Of a stretch of 64,000 bases of DNA, positions 12,393-36,643 are shown piece after piece. A program made the translations under genes and the position numbers. How positions within the stretch are numbered: position 1 is the stretch's first letter; each line of letters begins with the position of its first letter. The DNA is taken from contig JAWLBI010000001.1 of the NCBI GenBank assembly GCA_041394985.1, positions 4,292,855-4,356,854 on the forward strand, given 5' to 3'. The stretch comes from Candidatus Zixiibacteriota bacterium (GTDB lineage: Bacteria; Zixibacteria; MSB-5A5; GN15; JAAZOE01). The notes beneath the pieces were generated by a model. It worked only from the letters and a program-made list of their open reading frames with translations, was not told the DNA's origin and ran no database searches.

Positions 12393-12589
12393 AATAATGC
12401 TATCGGTACATCGCGAATGTAATAATCGCTTGCAAGATTTTCTATCCTCGTCTATATTATGATAATTACAGGAAGAGGTTCCCCTGTAATCCCTCACCTC
12501 GCACAGGTGTATTGATTTTCGCATCGCCGCAATCATGCAGTTCGTTATTTCACATTATCCTTGCAAGCGCATGTTTTAGGAGGGGAGCT

Positions 12590-13369
12590 ATGTCTCACAA
12601 GCTTATCGTATTTCTCGTGGTAACGTTGTTATTAGTCGCTTTCGCCGGAGATATTTCGGCCAAGGCTCTCGCCCGCTGGGTCGGTCCGATCGCCTATACG
12701 GGGGCTCACACTCGTGTCATCGGTGTAAAGTTCTGCGACGATGAGGAAATTTACCCGTTCACGACATCGAATCTCCCGATTCAGGCCTACTGTGAAAGTA
12801 TACGACCGGATTGGAAACAAGGCGGAGCCGTGGCGTATGCGTATTGTGATACGACCGCGACCGGGCGCAAAATTCAATGGGCATTCGCGCATTCCTGGGG
12901 CGTACTGGCCTGGGCAGGCAAATCGGCCGGCGATACGACGCGCTGTAGTACTCAGGTGATCTCATCAATCGACGCGGGACATCTTAGTATGGATGTTTAC
13001 GGTTCATTGTCATCGGTTGATCAGAAGCAAGGGGCTATTTTGCGACTCGATGTCACAGCCGGCGCGGATACTATTTTCAGCGGCCGAGCGGAATTGCGCG
13101 GCGCACCTGACGAATTGACCGCAAGTGGCGATTTCACCGTAGGCGATTTTTCCGTTGTCGGAAACGCGGTTGAAATGGAGCGAACATTTGCGGGCATTGA
13201 CGTATCCGCTTACAACCCGGATGATATTCAAATAGAGATAACCTCGGATGCGCAATCGTATATGCGGGTTCCTTCGACGACACCGTATGGGTTACTCATT
13301 CTCATCGGCCTGCTTGCCCTCACGGCGGCCTTCCTGGTGTTGAGGAGGTATCGCATCGCACGAATATAA
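12590..13369 (+). CDS. secreted 4-Cys protein with C-terminal TM anchor and RRYRIA tail (paralog A)
   Basis: The likely true start is the internal ATG at 12590, preceded by AGGAGG. Signal peptide, four conserved Cys, and C-terminal VPSTTPYG, then a hydrophobic helix, then RRYRIARI. It is a paralog of 13731..14504. Confidence 0.6.
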   Translation: MSHKLIVFLVVTLLLVAFAGDISAKALARWVGPIAYTGAHTRVIGVKFCDDEEIYPFTTSNLPIQAYCESIRPDWKQGGAVAYAYCDTTATGRKIQWAFAHSWGVLAWAGKSAGDTTRCSTQVISSIDAGHLSMDVYGSLSSVDQKQGAILRLDVTAGADTIFSGRAELRGAPDELTASGDFTVGDFSVVGNAVEMERTFAGIDVSAYNPDDIQIEITSDAQSYMRVPSTTPYGLLILIGLLALTAAFLVLRRYRIARI

Positions 13370-13426
13370 ACCGACGCGCCCTGACTGAATGGGGTGTCGC
13401 CGGAGCTTAATCAATCCCACGACATC

Positions 13427-13465
13427 GCCGCCGCCCGAGTAAATCGGGCGGCGGTTTTATATTTG
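13427..13465 (+). terminator. rho-independent terminator after paralog A
   Basis: Stem GCCGCCGCCCGA...TCGGGCGGCGG followed by TTTTATATTT. A second hairpin (GGCAGATGT/ACATCTGCC) lies immediately downstream. Confidence 0.65.
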
Positions 13466-13730
13466 TGGGCGGCAGATGTCCACATCTGCCAACTCTTGAC
13501 CTAAGCATAGCCTGCACCGTGAACGTTTTATATCATTATAAGTAGCACAATATAATATTAATAAATGCTTGCATATTTCTTTATATATATGTATGATACG
13601 AATGTCGAACACAAACATCTTTGCCATTCCCAGCCTCACACAATACAACACTACGTTCAAACCGCCGCTTAATATAGTGCAGTAATTTTTACGCACTTGA
13701 CACAGGCATGAAACATCGAGGAGGAGCCGT

Positions 13731-14504
13731 ATGTTTAAGAAGTTCTCAGCAATTTTATTCTGTTGCTTTTTACTATTCGTCATTGCAGGCAATATACAGG
13801 CCGGTGCCAAAGCCACATGGATCGGCCCAAACGCGGATGTTGAAGTTGACGCATCGGCATTAGGACAGAAGTTATGTGTCGATGCGGATTCCTATCCCGA
13901 TCCCAATCCGGGTTTACCGATTACCGCCGAATGTGAAGTGAATCGCCCGGCGCCTCAATTCGGTGGGGCGCTATCATTTGCCCGTTGTAATGAAACGTCT
14001 CCCCGAAAACAATTATTTGCCGTTGCGAAGGCATGGGGATTTCGCACTTCAGCCGACAAGTCTTTAACCGACACAACCAGTTGTAGCACATATGTGTCAT
14101 ATGAGATAATCGGTGGAATACTTAACATGGATGTAGTCGGTTATTTGTATTCAATAGACCCGCAACAAACTGCCATCATTCGACTAACAGTTTCATCCCA
14201 GGGAAATTCCATATTTAATGGATTGGCAACGCTAAGGGGTTCTACTGATAATTTGACTACGAATGGGGATTTTACAAATGCACACTTTATTCTGATAGCC
14301 GACTCGGCCCTGATCGGTGTTCCCTTTAATGGAATAGACGTATCCGCATATAACGTGGAGACGATTAAGGTGGAATTGACCGTAAATGCCCACTCCTACA
14401 TCAAAACTCCATCATCATCCTATTACGGGAAAATCGCGCTAATACTTTTAATGGCGCTCACGGCAGTTTTTTTAGTTTTCCGAAAATACAGGATAGCTGC
14501 TTGA
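13731..14504 (+). CDS. secreted 4-Cys protein with C-terminal TM anchor and RKYRIAA tail (paralog B)
   Basis: RBS GAGGAGG. Signal peptide ending IQAGAKA. Cys positions aligned with paralog A. C-terminal TPSSSYYG, then TM helix, then RKYRIAA. Confidence 0.6.
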   Translation: MFKKFSAILFCCFLLFVIAGNIQAGAKATWIGPNADVEVDASALGQKLCVDADSYPDPNPGLPITAECEVNRPAPQFGGALSFARCNETSPRKQLFAVAKAWGFRTSADKSLTDTTSCSTYVSYEIIGGILNMDVVGYLYSIDPQQTAIIRLTVSSQGNSIFNGLATLRGSTDNLTTNGDFTNAHFILIADSALIGVPFNGIDVSAYNVETIKVELTVNAHSYIKTPSSSYYGKIALILLMALTAVFLVFRKYRIAA

Positions 14505-14542: not shown

Positions 14543-15469
14543 TCAGGAATCGAGCAGTTTCCAGAGGGAGCCGTTGACCGACGCCAGTCGGTCGGCGGCT
14601 TCTTGTTTTGAGAGGCTCAGGCGATGCATCGCGATCGCCGTTTTGACCGATCCACCGGATGATTCGATCAGGGCGTCCGCGGCCTCGAAATCGATATCCA
14701 ACAATTCCATCAAAATCTTGCGCGACCGGGCGACTAATTTATCCGAGGTCGCCTTGAGGTCGACCATCAGATTGCCATAGCATTTCCCGAGCAGAATCAT
14801 CGCGGTCGTCGAAATCATATTGAGCGTCATCTTCTGGGCGGTACCGGATTTCATGCGCGTCGAGCCGGTAATAACCTCGGATCCGACCAGCAATTCGATT
14901 AGATAATCCGGTCGAACCGCAAGGTCATCTGCCTTGTTGCAGACGATCATTGCCGTTTTCGCGCCGATTCGTTTGGCATACTCGATACCGGCCAGCGTAT
15001 ACGGCGTGCGAATGGAAGCCGCCAGACCGATGAGAAAATCCTCGCTGCTGAATGCAAATTTTTTCAAATCATGCGGCGCCTCGTCGGCCCGGTCTTCTAT
15101 CCCCTCTTTGGATAACACCAGTGTATCCCGTCCGCCGGCGATAACACCGGTGACGAGAGCTGGATCGGCGCCGAAGGTCGGCGGTATTTCCGATGCATCC
15201 AGGACACCCAGACGCCCGGATGTGCCTGCTCCGATATAAAATAACCGCCCGCCGTTTCGCATAACGGCAGCAACCGCCTCGGCCGTTGCGGCAATGTTAT
15301 CGATTTGTCGCTCGACAGCGGCGGCAACGGTTTTGTCCTCATCGTTGATGATGCGGCAAATATCGACCGCCGCCAGGCGGTCGATATGCAGACTTTTTGG
15401 ATTGGGGCTTTCCGTGGAAAGCCGATTGAGGTGCCCGAGGAGTTCTTTTGCCTTCGCTTTGTCGCTCAT
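14543..15469 (-). CDS. murQ: N-acetylmuramic acid 6-phosphate etherase
   Basis: SIS domain with the MurQ signature (FYIGAGTSGRLGVLDASE). 308 aa. Confidence 0.85.
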   Translation of the reverse strand: MSDKAKAKELLGHLNRLSTESPNPKSLHIDRLAAVDICRIINDEDKTVAAAVERQIDNIAATAEAVAAVMRNGGRLFYIGAGTSGRLGVLDASEIPPTFGADPALVTGVIAGGRDTLVLSKEGIEDRADEAPHDLKKFAFSSEDFLIGLAASIRTPYTLAGIEYAKRIGAKTAMIVCNKADDLAVRPDYLIELLVGSEVITGSTRMKSGTAQKMTLNMISTTAMILLGKCYGNLMVDLKATSDKLVARSRKILMELLDIDFEAADALIESSGGSVKTAIAMHRLSLSKQEAADRLASVNGSLWKLLDS

Positions 15470-16215
15470 GGATTTGATACGGATATGGAATCCGGTAGTC
15501 CGATAACGATGCCGGCCGCTCGACCGGAAATATTCGACCCGGAAATATTATCACCCGGAATCAGGAGTTTCGGCAGGTCGAACGGAATGAATGTATTGGC
15601 AATCGGTGCGCCGTTATATGCGGCGACATAAATCATGTGCATGCCGATAATGCGATCGTTGACACCCAACTCGAACGCCTCACTCGGAATCGTGCCGTTA
15701 TTAACCGCCACGTATGCACTGTACCCGGTATCGACCGATGCGCTCGCGGGCGGCATCGTGGCCAGGATAAATCCATCGGCATTGGCGCCGCCGGTCCAGC
15801 TGACTGCCTCGGCGCTGCCGGTGTAAAACCGGAATCCGGTATTGGTAATAATCGGCGCTCCGGCCAATCGAATACTTATGGCTCTATCCAATAATGTCGA
15901 ATCGACCAGCGACAGCGTATAGACGGCATTAACCGGAATCGTTCCGGCGCCATACGTCTGGTAATATCCGATGGTATTCGTTTCGAGGGTATCGTTATTG
16001 AGCGCCACGGTAGCGGTCGTAATTGTGTCGCCGTTTCGAGTCAGCAAAACATCGATTCTGGCGGTGTCCGTCTGGACATTCTTCACCAGCGTGGCATAGA
16101 CGACGTACGTATCTTTTGTTCCGCCGCCGGTCAAATCGCCGCCACAACCGACCAGCCCGAGAATGAGGGCCAGAATCGGTATCACGAAGAGAACTGTTTT
16201 CTTTTCCATACTCAT
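15466..16215 (-). CDS. hypothetical lipoprotein
   Basis: The N-terminus MSMEKKTVLFVIPILALILGLVGCGG has a lipobox. Its stop overlaps the murQ start (ATGA). Confidence 0.5.
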   Translation of the reverse strand: MSMEKKTVLFVIPILALILGLVGCGGDLTGGGTKDTYVVYATLVKNVQTDTARIDVLLTRNGDTITTATVALNNDTLETNTIGYYQTYGAGTIPVNAVYTLSLVDSTLLDRAISIRLAGAPIITNTGFRFYTGSAEAVSWTGGANADGFILATMPPASASVDTGYSAYVAVNNGTIPSEAFELGVNDRIIGMHMIYVAAYNGAPIANTFIPFDLPKLLIPGDNISGSNISGRAAGIVIGLPDSISVSNP

Positions 16216-22308: not shown

Positions 22309-23256
22309 ATGAGAAAACTATTCGAATATATTGTCTTAATTATCTGCCTGTTCGGAGCATCTGCGCAGGCTACGAAATATGCCGGCGAACCATTCTCACT
22401 CGGTGTCGGCGCGAACGCGCTCGGTATGGGCGGCGCTGTCGTCGCAGGGCCGTACAATGCAACGGCGGGCTACTGGAATCCGGCCGGACTGGCCTTTACC
22501 GCTCCCGGCAAGCAGCTCTATACCATGCACTCCGAAACATTCGGATCGCTTTTAAATCAGGATTATATCGGATTCTCTTCTCATAATGGTCGCACGACCG
22601 GCCTCACCAGTTTCGGTCTCTATCTCTATTACCTCGGCGGCGGCGGTATTAAAATCACCGGCTTCGACACGGACTCCCAGTATCCGTATGTCATCCGCGA
22701 GGAAAACCATTTCGATATCCAATTCGGAGCCTCTTTGGCAGGGCGAGCACGAGATAATATCAGTTATGGTATTACCGCCAAAGTAATTTATCGGGATATT
22801 GCGGTCGAGACCGCCTATGGGTTGGGGCTCGATGCAGGAGTCGTCTACAAAGTCGATACCATGATCACTGCGGCTCTTGCCGTAACCGATATCACCTCGA
22901 CATTCCTCGCCTATTCCAACGATAATACCGAAACGATTTATCCCGCGGTCAAACCGGGTCTGTCGATTCGCTTCGCCCGCCCGCATGTTTCCATTCTGCT
23001 GTCCGGACAGTCGATCATCCGCTTTGAAGGTCGGAAGCAGAATGCCGAATTATGGCAGGGAGAAATCTCGGCCGATTTCCAGGCCGGGATGGAGGTCGCC
23101 TATCGCGGTGTTGCCTTCGGACGCGTCGGTTATGATCAGGATCGTCTGACGGCCGGTCTCGGCGCAATCATAAACAGGTATGTTATAGATTTGGCGTATC
23201 TGCATCACAATGACCTGGATGAAACATTCCGCATCTCGGCCGGCGTAAATTTCTAA
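22309..23256 (+). CDS. FadL/TodX-like outer-membrane beta-barrel protein (small, 315 aa)
   Basis: Signal peptide, then SLGVGANALGMGGAVVAGPYNATAGYWNPAGLA, which matches the FadL-family N-terminal hatch signature. Alternating beta-strand pattern. C-terminal aromatic residue (F). Confidence 0.45.
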   Translation: MRKLFEYIVLIICLFGASAQATKYAGEPFSLGVGANALGMGGAVVAGPYNATAGYWNPAGLAFTAPGKQLYTMHSETFGSLLNQDYIGFSSHNGRTTGLTSFGLYLYYLGGGGIKITGFDTDSQYPYVIREENHFDIQFGASLAGRARDNISYGITAKVIYRDIAVETAYGLGLDAGVVYKVDTMITAALAVTDITSTFLAYSNDNTETIYPAVKPGLSIRFARPHVSILLSGQSIIRFEGRKQNAELWQGEISADFQAGMEVAYRGVAFGRVGYDQDRLTAGLGAIINRYVIDLAYLHHNDLDETFRISAGVNF

Positions 23257-28308: not shown

Positions 28309-30675
28309 GTGAAAACTACCGCCGGCATTATCAGTATTATCCTGTGTCTTGTCGCAGTACTTTCTGCCAATCCATCCGTGCATATCGAACGTTTCGTTAC
28401 GACAAACCCCTCGGAACCGATAACTCTGGCCATAACGCTCGAAAACCAATCCGGATTCCAAACCGGCGGCTTCGACCTTGTCATAGACGTAGACAATACC
28501 TTCTCTATCGAATCGGTAACGGCCGGAGACATCCTCGGCCTCTGCGAGTGGGAAGCGTTTACTTACGAATTGTTGCCGGATAGCAGCATTCATATCACCG
28601 CAATGGCGGAGACCGCTAATGGCCCCTATCACCCGGACTGTTTTCTCGATACATCCGGAGTATTGGCATATATCACTCTCGAAACCAATGCCAACTTTAC
28701 ATTTTGCGAGTTTTTCCCGATTCGCTGGAAATGGTATGACTGTGGAGATAACGCCTTCAGCTCTCGTCTCGGCGATACGTTATATGTATCAGACGAGGTT
28801 TATGATTACAACGGACATGCCGATATCCCCATCGCCAGGGATACGACATTTCCGACAATATATGGTGCTCCTGAATCCTGCATGCCTCTTCCTCGCGAAA
28901 TTGATTTTTATAACGGCGGCATCTGGGTTGTCATAAATGATTATACGCCGCCTGTCATCGACTGTCAGGATGATACGACTGTTTACAGTGACCCTGGCGT
29001 TTGCGGAGCGGTTGTTGAATTCACTCTTAATGGGTGGGATGACTGCGGCGGCATTGAATTATCCAGTAGTCCGCCGAGCGGCGCGACATTCCAGATTGGC
29101 GAATCACCGGTCTTTTGTCTGGCCCGAGATGCCCTGGGAAATGTCGATACCTGTTGGTTTACGATAACCGTTATCGACACACAGTCCCCGCAAGTCGTCT
29201 GTCCCGCCGACACGATCGTAGCGAGCCGTCCGGGCGCCTGCAGCGCGATTGTTCAATATGTTGCTGATGTTATCGATAACTGCCCGGAAACCTATGCCTG
29301 GTGTAATCCTGCGCCGGGTTACAATTTCCCCATCGGAGAAACGACCGTTCATTGCACGGCGACCGATGCCGCAGGGAATACCGATACCGGCTCATTTACC
29401 GTCACTGTGGTCGACGCTGAGCCACCGACAATTGACTGCCCGGGGGATATCCTGATTAACAACGAAACCGGTTTGTGCGGTGGGTATCTATCATATGAAC
29501 CGACCATTTCGGATAATTGCTCCGGAGTATCATATACGATGACTCCGGCCTCGGGAAGTTACCTAACGATAGGAGAACACCCGGTACAAATCATCGCTGC
29601 GGATGCGGCCGGGCTTGCAGATACCTGCTCGTTCCTGGCCATCGTAGTAGATGCCGAACGCCCAGTCATCACTTGCCCGGATACGATACGAGCGACAGCC
29701 GCAGCCGGTGAATGCGGATCTCTTGTCTCGTTTTCAGCAGACGCCGAAGATAATTGTCAGGGAATCAATTTTATCTATTCTCCTCCGGCGGGTTCATATT
29801 TCCCCGTTGGGACATCTCCTGTTCGGGCTATCGCCGTCGACACCTACGGTAATGCCGACACCTGCATGTTTACGGTCATTGTTGCCGATACCGTCGCTCC
29901 GGTGATAACTGTCCCGGATCTGGCCTATGGCCCGGCCGACAGCGGCCAGTGCGGAGCGGTGATTACATTTGACATCACGGCTGAAGATAATTGTACAGCG
30001 ACGCAAATTACCGCAGAACCGCCATCGGGTTCATATTTCGAAATCGGAGAAACAACCGTTGTGGCCACGGCGTCAGATGCCTTCGGTAACAGCGTGAGCG
30101 ACTCGTTTACCGTATTCGTCTATGATATTCAAAAACCGATTGTGACCTGCCCCGGTGAGACATCACTCCTTAGCGACTCCGGTTATTACGGCGCCTTCCT
30201 GTCATTCGATTTCGATGTGACCGATAACTGCGACAGCGTCTATGCCATCGCCGAGCCTCCTTCCGGGAGCCTCTTCCTTGCCGGAGTGACCGAGGTTCAT
30301 GTTATCGGTATCGATAAAACGAACAATCGCGATACCTGTTCGTTCCTCGTCACCGTGACCCTTGTGGATGCAGACAACGATAGTATTCCTGATTGGGATG
30401 ATAATTGCCCGTTCGATTCGAATCATGATCAGAACGACGCCGACGGTGACGGCATCGGAGATGTCTGTGACTGGCGCCACGGTGATGCCAATGGAGACGA
30501 CTCCTTCAATATCGGCGACGCCGTATTTCTTATCTCGTATATCTTCAAAGGCGGCCCGGCTCCCTTCCCGCTCCTGGCAGGCGATGCCAACTGCGACGGC
30601 AGCGTGAATATCGGTGACGCCGTCTACCTCGTCGATTATATCTTCAACGCAGGCCCCCCTCCTCCCTGCCCATAA
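28309..30675 (+). CDS. secreted protein with six tandem HYR (hyalin-repeat) domains and a C-terminal dockerin-type double EF-hand repeat
   Basis: GTG start with a GGAGAG RBS. Signal peptide. Six ~80-aa repeats, each with C-P...G.CGA.V.F....DNC....SPPSGS.F..G.T.V...A.D..GN.DTC.F.V.V.D. C-terminal DANGDDSFNIGDAVFLISYIF and DANCDGSVNIGDAVYLVDYIF dockerin-like calcium-binding repeats. Confidence 0.7.
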   Translation: MKTTAGIISIILCLVAVLSANPSVHIERFVTTNPSEPITLAITLENQSGFQTGGFDLVIDVDNTFSIESVTAGDILGLCEWEAFTYELLPDSSIHITAMAETANGPYHPDCFLDTSGVLAYITLETNANFTFCEFFPIRWKWYDCGDNAFSSRLGDTLYVSDEVYDYNGHADIPIARDTTFPTIYGAPESCMPLPREIDFYNGGIWVVINDYTPPVIDCQDDTTVYSDPGVCGAVVEFTLNGWDDCGGIELSSSPPSGATFQIGESPVFCLARDALGNVDTCWFTITVIDTQSPQVVCPADTIVASRPGACSAIVQYVADVIDNCPETYAWCNPAPGYNFPIGETTVHCTATDAAGNTDTGSFTVTVVDAEPPTIDCPGDILINNETGLCGGYLSYEPTISDNCSGVSYTMTPASGSYLTIGEHPVQIIAADAAGLADTCSFLAIVVDAERPVITCPDTIRATAAAGECGSLVSFSADAEDNCQGINFIYSPPAGSYFPVGTSPVRAIAVDTYGNADTCMFTVIVADTVAPVITVPDLAYGPADSGQCGAVITFDITAEDNCTATQITAEPPSGSYFEIGETTVVATASDAFGNSVSDSFTVFVYDIQKPIVTCPGETSLLSDSGYYGAFLSFDFDVTDNCDSVYAIAEPPSGSLFLAGVTEVHVIGIDKTNNRDTCSFLVTVTLVDADNDSIPDWDDNCPFDSNHDQNDADGDGIGDVCDWRHGDANGDDSFNIGDAVFLISYIFKGGPAPFPLLAGDANCDGSVNIGDAVYLVDYIFNAGPPPPCP

Positions 30676-33617: not shown

Positions 33618-33814
33618 GGAAATCATCGGGCCCGAAGTCGATATTAGTACCGGTAACCGAGTTCACCTAATTATTGACTTTTTTATTGCGGGAGCCGCCA
33701 ATGCGCAATATCATGAAATACGGGCTGGAATCTTCGACCACATCATCCATGACATGCGCTCATTCACATCAGACTTATATCAATGTTCATGATAGAGATA
33801 AGGGGAGTATAATC

Positions 33815-35140
33815 ATGAAGCGGATGGGTATCCTGGCGAGCCTGTTGCTCGCACTGTTTTTAGTATCGGCGCTTCAGGCCGACAATGCCGAGATTGCCGG
33901 AAAATGTATGACCTGTCACAAGGAGAAATCGCCGGGACTGTACAAACAATGGTATATGTCCGAGCATGCCAATCACAAGGTCACCTGTTATGACTGCCAT
34001 CAGGCTCAGAGCGGCGACGCCGATGCGTTCATGCACGAAGGCGCCCTCATTGCCACACTCGTGACGCCGAAGGACTGCGGTAAGTGTCACCAGAAGGAGA
34101 TGACCGAGGTCAGCAATTCCTACCATGCGACCGCCGGAGAAATCCTGGAATCGGCCGATGCCTATCTGGCCCATGTTGCGGCCGGTGAGCCGGTTGCCAT
34201 TACGGGATGCGAAAACTGCCACGGAGGTAAAATTAAAATCGACCCCGCATCACCGAACAAGTTATCATCGAAATCCTGGCCGAACTCGGGAATCGGTCGC
34301 CTGAATCCGGACGGCTCCAAGGGTTCCTGCAATGCCTGTCACACTCGGCATTCGTTCTCAAAAGCTCAGGCGCGTCAGCCGGAGGCCTGTTCCAAATGTC
34401 ACCTCGGTCCGGACCATCCGCAAAAAGAGGTCTATGAGGAGTCCAAACACGGTAATGCCTACTATACACATATTGACCAGATGAATCTTAAATCCGACTC
34501 TTGGGTCGTCGGCGTCGACTATTTCGAGGCCCCGACCTGCGCCACCTGTCATATGTCGGCAACGACTCAATCCGGTGTGACGCATGATGTCGGCAATCGC
34601 ATCTCCTGGACGCTCCGTCCGCCGATTTCCAAGCATAAGGAAAACTGGCAGGAAAAACGCAATAATATGAAGATGGTGTGCACATCCTGTCACGGCCAGA
34701 CATTCGCTGATGGCCATTACTATCAATTCGACGCTGTCGTCGAACTGTATAATGAGAAATTCGCCAAACCGGCTACCGAGATGATGAAGATTATCCGCGA
34801 TAATAAGCTCATGGAAAACCCGGCCAGTTTCAGCAACAAGGTCGAATGGACCTACTGGGAGCTGTGGCACCATGAAGGTCGCCGCGCCCGCCACGGCGCT
34901 GCAATGATGGGACCGGACTATACCTGGTGGCACGGTCTGTATGAAGTCGCCCAGCATTTCTATTTCAAGATGATTCCCGAGGCGCGCGAGTTCAACAATC
35001 CCGAACTGAACGCCTACATCGATAAAGTACTCGCCGATCCTATGCACGAATGGATGAGCACCGACACCAATTCACTCAAGGAAGCCATCCGTTCCGGAAA
35101 GATGCAAAAAGTGTACGAAGAGATGTTCGACAAAAAATAG
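33815..35140 (+). CDS. octahaem c-type cytochrome (HAO/OTR/ONR superfamily-like), secreted
   Basis: Likely start ATG 33815 (RBS AGGGGAG), then signal peptide MKRMGILASLLLALFLVSALQA. Eight CxxCH motifs (CMTCH, CYDCH, CGKCH, CENCH, CNACH, CSKCH, CATCH, CTSCH) in about 440 aa. Confidence 0.75.
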   Translation: MKRMGILASLLLALFLVSALQADNAEIAGKCMTCHKEKSPGLYKQWYMSEHANHKVTCYDCHQAQSGDADAFMHEGALIATLVTPKDCGKCHQKEMTEVSNSYHATAGEILESADAYLAHVAAGEPVAITGCENCHGGKIKIDPASPNKLSSKSWPNSGIGRLNPDGSKGSCNACHTRHSFSKAQARQPEACSKCHLGPDHPQKEVYEESKHGNAYYTHIDQMNLKSDSWVVGVDYFEAPTCATCHMSATTQSGVTHDVGNRISWTLRPPISKHKENWQEKRNNMKMVCTSCHGQTFADGHYYQFDAVVELYNEKFAKPATEMMKIIRDNKLMENPASFSNKVEWTYWELWHHEGRRARHGAAMMGPDYTWWHGLYEVAQHFYFKMIPEAREFNNPELNAYIDKVLADPMHEWMSTDTNSLKEAIRSGKMQKVYEEMFDKK

Positions 35141-35149
35141 GGGTCGACC

Positions 35150-36643
35150 GTGCTTGATAAATATATCAATTTCGTTCGCGGCGTTTCGGTGAACATTGTG
35201 GGAAAGATTGGGGTCGTCCTGACGACCTCGTCTTTTTTCACGTTCGTCCTGCTGGAAGTCGCCCGCATAGCGGGGCTTCTGACCAACGCCTATATCGGGC
35301 TGATAACCTATCTCCTCCTGCCGGCCCTGTTTATCATCGGACTATTGCTTATCCCAATTGGCTGGCGGATGTGGAAAAAACAGACCGGGAAAACGACTCA
35401 ACAATTGCTTTCTGAGCGGTTCGATGATACCGACATCAAGGGTGGGCTGTTCGGTTCCCGATTATTTCTGTCGGTTGGCATATTCACGGTTATCAATATT
35501 ATCTTTCTCGTCGGCGCCAGTTCACGAATGCTCACCTTTATGGACGGCCCGGAATTCTGCGGTACGGCCTGTCACACCGTTATGAATCCTGAATGGGTGA
35601 CCTATCAGCAATCTCCCCATGCGCGCGTCGATTGCGTCGATTGCCATGTCGGCGAGGGAGTCGATGCCCTGATTAACAGTAAACTCAACGGCACCTGGCA
35701 GATGATTTCGGTGACGTTCGATTTGCTGGACCGCCCCATTCCGACGCCGGTGCACCAACTTCGGCCCGCTCGAGAGACATGTGAAAAATGCCACTGGCCG
35801 GACAAATTCTATGGGAGCCGCCTGAAAACGATTACGCACTATGACTCTGACGAACAGTCCACCCGTAAGTTTACGACCCTGAACCTCAAAATCGATGCCG
35901 GGACCGGCGCCAAAAAATCCGGCATTCACTGGCACGTCGCGGCAGAAAACCTTGTTCGCTACGCCTCGGTCGATGATGAGCGCAAGGAAATGATCTGGGT
36001 CGAGGTTTTAGAGCCTGACTGGTCATTCAAGAGATATACCAACAGGCGCCTTAAGGATGTCGATCCTTCGCACGAGAGTATCCGGGTTCTCGATTGCGTC
36101 GACTGCCACAACAGAGCAACCCATATTTATGAGTACCCATCCGATGCTATTGACAGCCGTATTGCGGCAGAGATGATCGACCATTCTCTACCCTATATCA
36201 AGCGCGAGGCGCTCAAGGCGGTATCGGCCCACTATGTCGATACGGCGGCCGCTCGTGAGGGCATCGCCAATAGTATCGCCTCTTTTTATCGTACAACATA
36301 TCCCGAGGTCGCACGCTCTAAGTTCGATGCCATCGATAAATCCATTGCGGCTGCGCAGGCGGTGTATGCCCGAAACATTCATCCGTATATGAATATCACC
36401 TGGGGAAGTTATCCGAACTTTCTGGGACATCGTGGCAATTCCGGTTGTTTCCGCTGTCATAATGATAACATGGTCGATGATGCGGGAACTCCGATTTCGT
36501 CGGACTGCGCACTCTGCCATTCGATTCTGGCCTACGGCAGCGAGCAGGCATTCGAATATCTCAATCCAGCCGACACGGCCTCGAAGGACTACCTGATGCA
36601 CGAATACTTGCGGCAGGAATTTCTGGATTATATTAAGAAGTAA
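35150..36643 (+). CDS. membrane-anchored hexahaem c-type cytochrome (putative quinol-oxidising partner)
   Basis: Two N-terminal TM helices, then six CxxCH motifs (CGTACH, CVDCH, CEKCH, CVDCH, CFRCH, CALCH). Starts 10 bp after the octahaem gene. Confidence 0.7.
   Translation: MLDKYINFVRGVSVNIVGKIGVVLTTSSFFTFVLLEVARIAGLLTNAYIGLITYLLLPALFIIGLLLIPIGWRMWKKQTGKTTQQLLSERFDDTDIKGGLFGSRLFLSVGIFTVINIIFLVGASSRMLTFMDGPEFCGTACHTVMNPEWVTYQQSPHARVDCVDCHVGEGVDALINSKLNGTWQMISVTFDLLDRPIPTPVHQLRPARETCEKCHWPDKFYGSRLKTITHYDSDEQSTRKFTTLNLKIDAGTGAKKSGIHWHVAAENLVRYASVDDERKEMIWVEVLEPDWSFKRYTNRRLKDVDPSHESIRVLDCVDCHNRATHIYEYPSDAIDSRIAAEMIDHSLPYIKREALKAVSAHYVDTAAAREGIANSIASFYRTTYPEVARSKFDAIDKSIAAAQAVYARNIHPYMNITWGSYPNFLGHRGNSGCFRCHNDNMVDDAGTPISSDCALCHSILAYGSEQAFEYLNPADTASKDYLMHEYLRQEFLDYIKK

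Follow-up and report, generated by a model that had tools for sequence, protein, structure and literature searches.

The locus and its two genes

A 64 kb stretch (the window) of the 4.46 Mb contig of a Candidatus Zixiibacteriota metagenome-assembled genome (MAG) was analysed. It carries two adjacent genes, here termed A and B, the products of which end in a tail composed of a short motif, a hydrophobic helix and a basic cluster. An original prediction, read from the DNA alone, took this tail for a C-terminal sorting signal of an unrecognised kind. Judged by sequence comparison, the tail is not an unrecognised class; it is a diverged signal of the type associated with exosortase H (XrtH), missed by the curated models and carried by a rare family of β-proteins.

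The layout of the locus is as had been described (Table 1), with two adjacent genes for proteins of about 260 residues (259 and 257), an AGGAGG ribosome-binding site (RBS) before each and a terminator with a 12 bp stem between them. The terminator stem is followed by TTTATATTT. The promoter-like site before B is a consensus match only and does not stand above the expectation from shuffled sequence.

Table 1. Position of genes A and B and of their features in the 64 kb window
Feature	Position	Strand	Remarks
RBS of gene A	12578-12583	+	AGGAGG, 6 nt 5' of ATG (sequence reading)
Gene A	12590-13369	+	259 aa; predicted secreted all-β protein with XrtH-type C-terminal tail; NCBI MEZ5360628.1, locus tag R3F48_17580
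Signal peptide of A	12590-12661	+	aa 1-24, ...AGDISA before K; predicted by inspection
Sorting motif of A (putative)	13268-13291	+	V227-PSTTPY-G234; aligned with I-P-T-L-T-x-W-G in the profile of XrtH-linked tails
Transmembrane helix and basic cluster of A	13292-13366	+	Helix aa 235-251; RRYRIARI aa 252-259
Intrinsic terminator after A	13427-13455 (13427-13465 with T-rich tail)	+	12 bp stem, 10 GC pairs
Promoter-like site upstream of B	13527-13556	+	TTTATA-18-TATAAT, 10 of 12 consensus matches; tentative
RBS of gene B	13719-13724	+	AGGAGG, 6 nt 5' of ATG (sequence reading)
Gene B	13731-14504	+	257 aa; paralog of A
Sorting motif of B (putative)	14406-14429	+	T226-PSSSYY-G233; weaker match to the XrtH-type profile
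Transmembrane helix and basic cluster of B	14430-14501	+	Helix aa 234-250; RKYRIAA aa 251-257

The two proteins share 45% identity over 257 residues (BLASTP, E = 7e-73). By inspection, each begins with a predicted Sec signal peptide, MSHKLIVFLVVTLLLVAFAGDISA followed by K in A and MFKKFSAILFCCFLLFVIAGNIQA followed by G in B, and an AlphaFold2 (AF2) model of A has a helix at residues 2-17. Four cysteines (Cys49, Cys68, Cys86 and Cys119 in the numbering of A) are present without exception in A, B and four orthologs. The signal peptides and the four cysteines had been noted before, and both observations stand. The G-x-L-x-L-D-V/L-T-V core proposed at the same time holds only approximately: conservation in the alignment falls on G130-x-L-x-M-D-V-x-G, and GAILRLDVT of A corresponds to TAIIRLTVS in B.

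The model of A (predicted local distance difference test score, pLDDT, 87; predicted TM-score, pTM, 0.77) comprises 14 strands and a C-terminal helix at residues 232-258. The ectodomain of A is predicted to be an all-β fold, for which no relative was found among solved PDB structures. Neither Pfam nor NCBIfam recognises a family for A or B. A lipoprotein nature of A and B was rejected for want of a lipobox, and a C-terminal domain of the type IX secretion system (T9SS) because the tails have the wrong architecture.

The family to which A and B belong is rare. A word-indexed search of 5.8 billion proteins returned four orthologs, and HMMER, run exhaustively on 1.84 billion cluster representatives, gave only 21 matches, or about 21 clusters of relatives. 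A profile scan of the GTDB species genomes, which did not return the genome of the window itself, gave one Zixibacteria locus, already known. A and B would define a small, uncharacterised family of all-β surface proteins that lacks a solved relative.

Conservation of the C-terminal tail

The original prediction had divided the C-terminus of both proteins into three parts (motif, hydrophobic helix, basic tail), and this layout is confirmed. The tails of A and B are 58% identical, which is higher than the identity of the whole proteins. In an alignment of 24 family members the tail is the best-conserved region, beyond chance. The mean column entropy is 1.28 bits over the eight columns of the motif, compared with 2.26 bits over the ectodomain and 2.83 bits over the eight residues upstream of the motif. 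Pro228 (position -6) and Gly234 (position 0) are each kept in 23 of the 24 members, and the motif is retained among about 21 clusters with identity down to 21%. The conserved positions are P(-6), S/T(-5), T/S(-3), Y/W(-1) and G(0), with the transmembrane (TM) helix directly after the Gly and then an Arg-rich stop-transfer cluster.

In the clade of the window the motif reads VPSTTPYG, and in other Zixibacteria in which the gene lies in the same murQ synteny it is VPATNQYG or VPSMTVYG. More distant members of the family carry VPSLTPYG, VPSLTQWG (P0019), VPTVTQWG (P0021) and IPTLTGWG (P0013). Within one protein family the motif grades from VPSTTPYG to the canonical IPTLxxWG-CTERM signal, which NCBIfam assigns to XrtH.

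One metagenomic protein of 133 residues (P0020) joins a LysM domain to roughly the last 40 ectodomain residues of the A/B family, followed by a VPSLTPYG tail. From this chimera the C-terminal strand and the tail appear to form a module that is mobile between proteins.

Comparison with known sorting signals

The IPTLxxWG-CTERM proteins assigned to XrtH provide the closest comparison. Like A and B, they have an N-terminal signal peptide and a C-terminal motif, TM helix and Arg cluster. The spacing of the motif is also shared: Gly at position 0 adjoins the helix directly and is preceded by an aromatic residue at -1, with Thr/Ser at -3, Ser/Thr at -5 and Pro at -6. Homologs of the A/B family bear canonical tails in XrtH loci, and the phylum encodes XrtH. 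A and B differ in having Thr/Ser for Leu at -4, Tyr for Trp, and RRYR or RKYR as the basic cluster. One IPTL-CTERM protein for which there are data is the surface-layer (S-layer) protein mela_00855 of Methylomirabilis lanthanidiphila, which is surface-located and the C-terminal tail of which was not detected by mass spectrometry (PMC8671808). It resembles A and B in being small (312 aa) and secreted, with a signal peptide and an IPTL-CTERM, but it belongs to another phylum (NC10) and is likened to A and B by description only.

Curated hidden Markov models (HMMs) respond to the tails of the family below their cut-offs. NF033207 (midcut-by-XrtH; cut-off 45 bits) matches 15 of the 24 family members over the tail, and TIGR04174 (IPTL_CTERM; cut-off 20.5 bits) matches five, the best with 16.1 bits (P0019). 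On A itself the NF033207 match is weak, at 12.4-14.5 bits. Our own tail HMM was built from 34 distinct tails, exclusively of proteins outside the family, taken from loci found via a neighbouring gene (see below), and was run on the 644 six-frame open reading frames (ORFs) of the window. Protein A scored 26.6 bits (E = 1.3e-7) and B scored 13.6 bits (E = 1.5e-3), whereas no other ORF exceeded 5.2 bits (E = 0.6), despite the many TM proteins in the window. The tail of A therefore matches the XrtH-linked class significantly and that of B marginally. A 41-column profile of the tail alone found no match at E <= 10 in the database of 5.8 billion proteins.

The original prediction had held that the motif fits no named class, overlooking IPTLxxWG-CTERM/XrtH (TIGR04174, PF18203 and TIGR04177) and VPXXXP-CTERM/ArtB. 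This stands only in so far as no curated HMM reaches its threshold on A and B (the LPXTG match described next covers the helix and basic part). In substance it does not hold, given the kinship to IPTLxxWG-CTERM/XrtH and the presence of IPTLTGWG and VPSLTQWG in the family.

Three other classes were considered and rejected. The LPXTG model TIGR01167 scores 16.1 bits on A (cut-off 15.9), but the match spans profile positions 11-32 only, that is, the TM and basic part, and was rejected for this reason. LPXTG proteins share the tripartite layout; A and B have no LPXTG motif, there is no sortase in the window, and the host belongs to the Fibrobacteres-Chlorobi-Bacteroidetes (FCB) group, with T9SS-type genes. 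In the case of VPXXXP-CTERM and archaeosortase B (TIGR04143 and TIGR04144), A has the literal V-P-x-x-x-P as VPSTTP, but TIGR04143 gives it 10.6 bits against a cut-off of 30, B (TPSSSY) does not match, and the second proline is absent in B and in most relatives. ArtB is reportedly an archaeal system. With PEP-CTERM and exosortase A (EpsH), A and B share the tripartite architecture; the enzyme superfamily (PF09721) and the presumed mechanism of cleavage and transfer would also be common to both systems. There is, however, no P-E-P motif in either tail and no PEP-CTERM model matches at E <= 10; the related loci carry the short XrtH subtype of about 190 residues, and no exopolysaccharide locus is linked.

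Genomic linkage to XrtH and to an Lnt_N-only membrane protein

In the case of two distant members of the family, P0013 and P0016, the preceding gene encodes a small polytopic membrane protein whose sole Pfam match is LNT_N (E = 2.3e-10). LNT_N is the membrane domain of apolipoprotein N-acyltransferase (Lnt). Downstream of P0013 lies an unrelated secreted protein that ends IPTLTNWG-TM-RRR. The Lnt_N-only protein has no nitrilase domain and its C-terminal end carries a conserved YxFPDxRAPP. As bait in the JGI metagenomes it gave 53 loci (match coordinates include L005:1355-1921 and L006:7215-7829, with further loci among L011-L055). According to an automated count, the first downstream ORF on the same strand ends [IV]P[STA][LF][TS]x[WY]G-TM-RRR in 29 of the 37 evaluable loci, and correction of three ORF-calling artefacts raised this to 32 of 37. 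The exceptions have a large dockerin protein downstream (L031, L035, L038 and L044). Matches to full-length Lnt have no such tail-bearing neighbours. The Lnt_N-only protein has no NCBIfam model and is labelled hypothetical or Lnt by JGI; its AF2 model had a pLDDT of 51. Its pairing with XrtH substrates is tight and apparently undescribed, and no curated library includes it.

The 40 tail-bearing ORFs in these metagenome loci comprise five homologs of the A/B family and 35 proteins that fall into 19 unrelated ectodomain clusters. To find one tail on 19 unrelated ectodomain types is the hallmark of a sorting signal. The family homologs adjoin the Lnt_N-only gene in L005, L006, L013 and L051. A protein with a T9SS C-terminal domain was also seen in L005, beside the XrtH-type substrates.

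An exosortase of 175-196 residues is encoded within 5 kb in ten of about 45 loci. These enzymes match PF09721, with Cys, Arg and His invariant. Three representatives scored 103.1, 117.2 and 80.9 bits on the XrtH model TIGR04177 (cut-off 86), so that two of the three pass, and the XrtH-associated membrane protein NF041730 occurs in five loci. The order of genes in L014 is Lnt_N-only protein, family homolog, small tail-bearing ORF, XrtH and a 157-residue partner. The family homolog lies 1.2 kb upstream of XrtH and is only weakly homologous to A (E = 2e-6, within the C-terminal 100 residues). The earlier reading of the tail as an exosortase-type sorting signal, as opposed to a chance anchor, finds support: no part of the family is better conserved than the motif, this kind of tail occurs on at least 19 unrelated ectodomains and XrtH is present in related loci.

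XrtH is also found in the phylum. Profile searching gave 312 relatives of XrtH and of the Lnt_N-only protein, and two enzymes in Zixibacteria MAGs (P0032 and P0080) are named 'exosortase H' by NCBI. In one Zixiibacteriota MAG (L065; GCA_049643865.1) a C39-like secreted protein is encoded directly upstream of XrtH, and its tail, AIPSLSQWG..., scores 23.6 bits on IPTL_CTERM, above the cut-off of 20.5. The Zixibacterial XrtH loci are syntenic (L064:764-1814, L065:1555-2578 and L066:5001-6000), with XrtH, an overlapping membrane protein of 152-169 residues for which no family match was found, isochorismatase, DUF362 and UbiA. The XrtH-like enzymes of Zixibacteria score 120.6 bits on the ArtB model, below its cut-off of 150 but above their XrtH score, and JGI labels them ArtB.

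XrtH occurs in the related loci and in other Zixibacteria MAGs, and none is encoded in the 64 kb window. The co-occurrence of the tail with an exosortase-like gene, which the original prediction had proposed to look for, is therefore found for the family and the phylum and not for this genome, as read in the window.

Proposed role of the tail

Our analysis leans towards the idea that the tail of A and B is a diverged IPTLxxWG-CTERM/XrtH sorting signal, carried by Sec-exported envelope or surface proteins of Zixibacteria and processed by XrtH. The tail is real and probably functional, but it belongs with a known kind of system. A and B would be exported by Sec, each with an all-β ectodomain of about 200 residues held by the four conserved cysteines. 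After export the signal peptide would be removed and the C-terminal helix would retain the protein in the cytoplasmic membrane. XrtH, a Cys/Arg/His membrane transpeptidase presumably encoded elsewhere in the genome, would then recognise the motif at the membrane surface. It would cleave off the TM helix and basic tail and pass the mature protein to an acceptor, which may be a lipid or a surface polymer. This scheme follows the archaeosortase/exosortase mechanism (PMC6098224).

Several observations weigh against this assignment. Firstly, the 64 kb window encodes no exosortase, sortase, rhomboid, XrtH, XrtH-associated protein or Lnt_N-only protein, and none of the 120 XrtH matches listed falls on this 4.46 Mb contig. 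The 10 kb flanks of the orthologs in three further MAGs likewise contain none of these enzymes and partners. The only tail carriers in the window are the two paralogs themselves. Secondly, the curated IPTL_CTERM models (TIGR04174 and PF18203, the latter with a cut-off of 20.8 bits) give no match to A or B at E <= 10. The clade of the window has Thr for the usual Leu at -4 and RRYR for RRRR, the ortholog P0005 lacks Pro at -6, and B has Lys directly after the Gly; drift of this kind could reflect relaxed constraint. Thirdly, exosortases were without experimental analysis as of a 2018 review (PMC6098224), and cleavage and acceptor therefore rest on the analogy with archaeosortase A (ArtA).

Because of the drift (Thr at -4, Tyr for Trp, RRYR, P0005 without Pro and the Lys of B), it is possible, though rather unlikely, that the tail descends from an XrtH signal and now serves only as a C-terminal membrane anchor. 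A and B would then be uncleaved bitopic (type I) proteins of the inner membrane with a periplasmic β-domain. The lack of a sorting enzyme in the window or beside the orthologs would agree with this, as would a motif that lies below all curated thresholds and the loss, in the murQ-adjacent clade, of the Lnt_N-only neighbour that accompanies the distant homologs. A plain anchor, however, needs no P-S-x-T-x-Y-G, and even where members share only 28-41% identity in the ectodomain, the motif is far more conserved than its juxtamembrane flanks. The tail of A still scores E = 1.3e-7 on a profile built independently of the family. XrtH is also usually not adjacent to its substrates, an exosortase within 5 kb being seen in only ten of about 45 loci.

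A further development of the XrtH assignment can be offered as no more than a tentative and somewhat doubtful suggestion. The tails in the window may represent an XrtH sub-class specific to Zixibacteria, and in this phylum and its relatives the Lnt_N-only membrane protein may take part in XrtH sorting as a third component, one that could present a lipid or other acceptor to XrtH. The Lnt_N-only partner could be relevant to the acceptor of exosortase reactions and, if this were true, it would offer a first clue to what exosortases join their substrates to.

It is improbable that the tail is a sorting signal handled by a partner other than XrtH, either the Lnt_N-only protein or an enzyme specific to the sub-motif, in a distinct sub-system. 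Linkage to tail-bearing genes is tighter for the Lnt_N-only gene than for XrtH (29 of 37 loci, or 32 of 37 as corrected, compared with ten of about 45), the Lnt_N-only protein has no NCBIfam model, and the motif in the window differs systematically from IPTLxxWG. There is, however, no Lnt_N-only homolog in the window, and those loci that could be read at length do contain XrtH and its associated protein. The catalytic triad of Lnt sits in the nitrilase domain, which is missing in the Lnt_N-only protein, so that what is left is a membrane domain without known catalytic residues.

That the likeness of the two tails is mere inheritance from a duplication, a paralog-specific anchor or chance pattern without function, is most improbable: shared features are expected of paralogs, but the tails are more alike than the whole proteins, and the motif is kept in distant clusters of the family and also on unrelated proteins.

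If the tail is an XrtH signal, it has here drifted past annotation, with Leu to Thr at -4, Trp to Tyr and RRRR to RRYR, while the key Pro, Ser/Thr, aromatic residue and Gly are kept. The number of XrtH substrates in Zixibacteria and in related MAGs of the FCB group is therefore probably underestimated. Exosortase systems are widespread but have hardly been studied by experiment, and curated tail HMMs are the sole means of recognising their substrates.

Origin of gene B and neighbouring genes

The original prediction described A and B as tandem paralogs. The paralogy is borne out by the sequence identity; a simple and recent tandem duplication is not. The GC content of B is 44% (42% at third codon positions, GC3), compared with 53% (GC3 56%) for A and 51% for the whole window, and the segment 13370-14504, comprising B and the intergenic region before it, is AT-richer, at 44-45% GC. 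In three related MAGs (L002-L004) the yjbR-X-murQ site is otherwise syntenic but lacks gene B. Because B differs from A in GC content and is absent from this site, it is not a fresh tandem duplicate; it looks as if B was acquired or inserted, and not duplicated in place. No repeats of note flank B as a signature of insertion. B forms a separate 50% cluster (P0006).

The slot of B is occupied in one of these MAGs (L002) by a dockerin protein of 1048 residues. A link between dockerin proteins and the tail system was considered and rejected, since this neighbour carries no such tail. Large secreted proteins that end in a dockerin are frequent in these Zixibacteria loci (for example L002:10982-14128), and the window itself encodes a 788-residue protein with six HYR repeats and a dockerin (28309-30675). 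Adjoining murQ in all of the syntenic Zixibacteria loci is a gene that in the window lies at 15466-16215 on the reverse strand; its 249-residue product begins like a lipoprotein (...LVGCGG) and belongs to no Pfam family.

Elsewhere in the window, a 315-residue protein (22309-23256) gives a sub-threshold match to PorV of the T9SS (22.7 bits; cut-off 27), which fits an organism of the FCB group that also has type IX secretion. Two adjacent genes (33674-35140 and 35150-36643) encode multihaem c-type cytochromes, one of a seven-haem type and one NapC/NirT-like.

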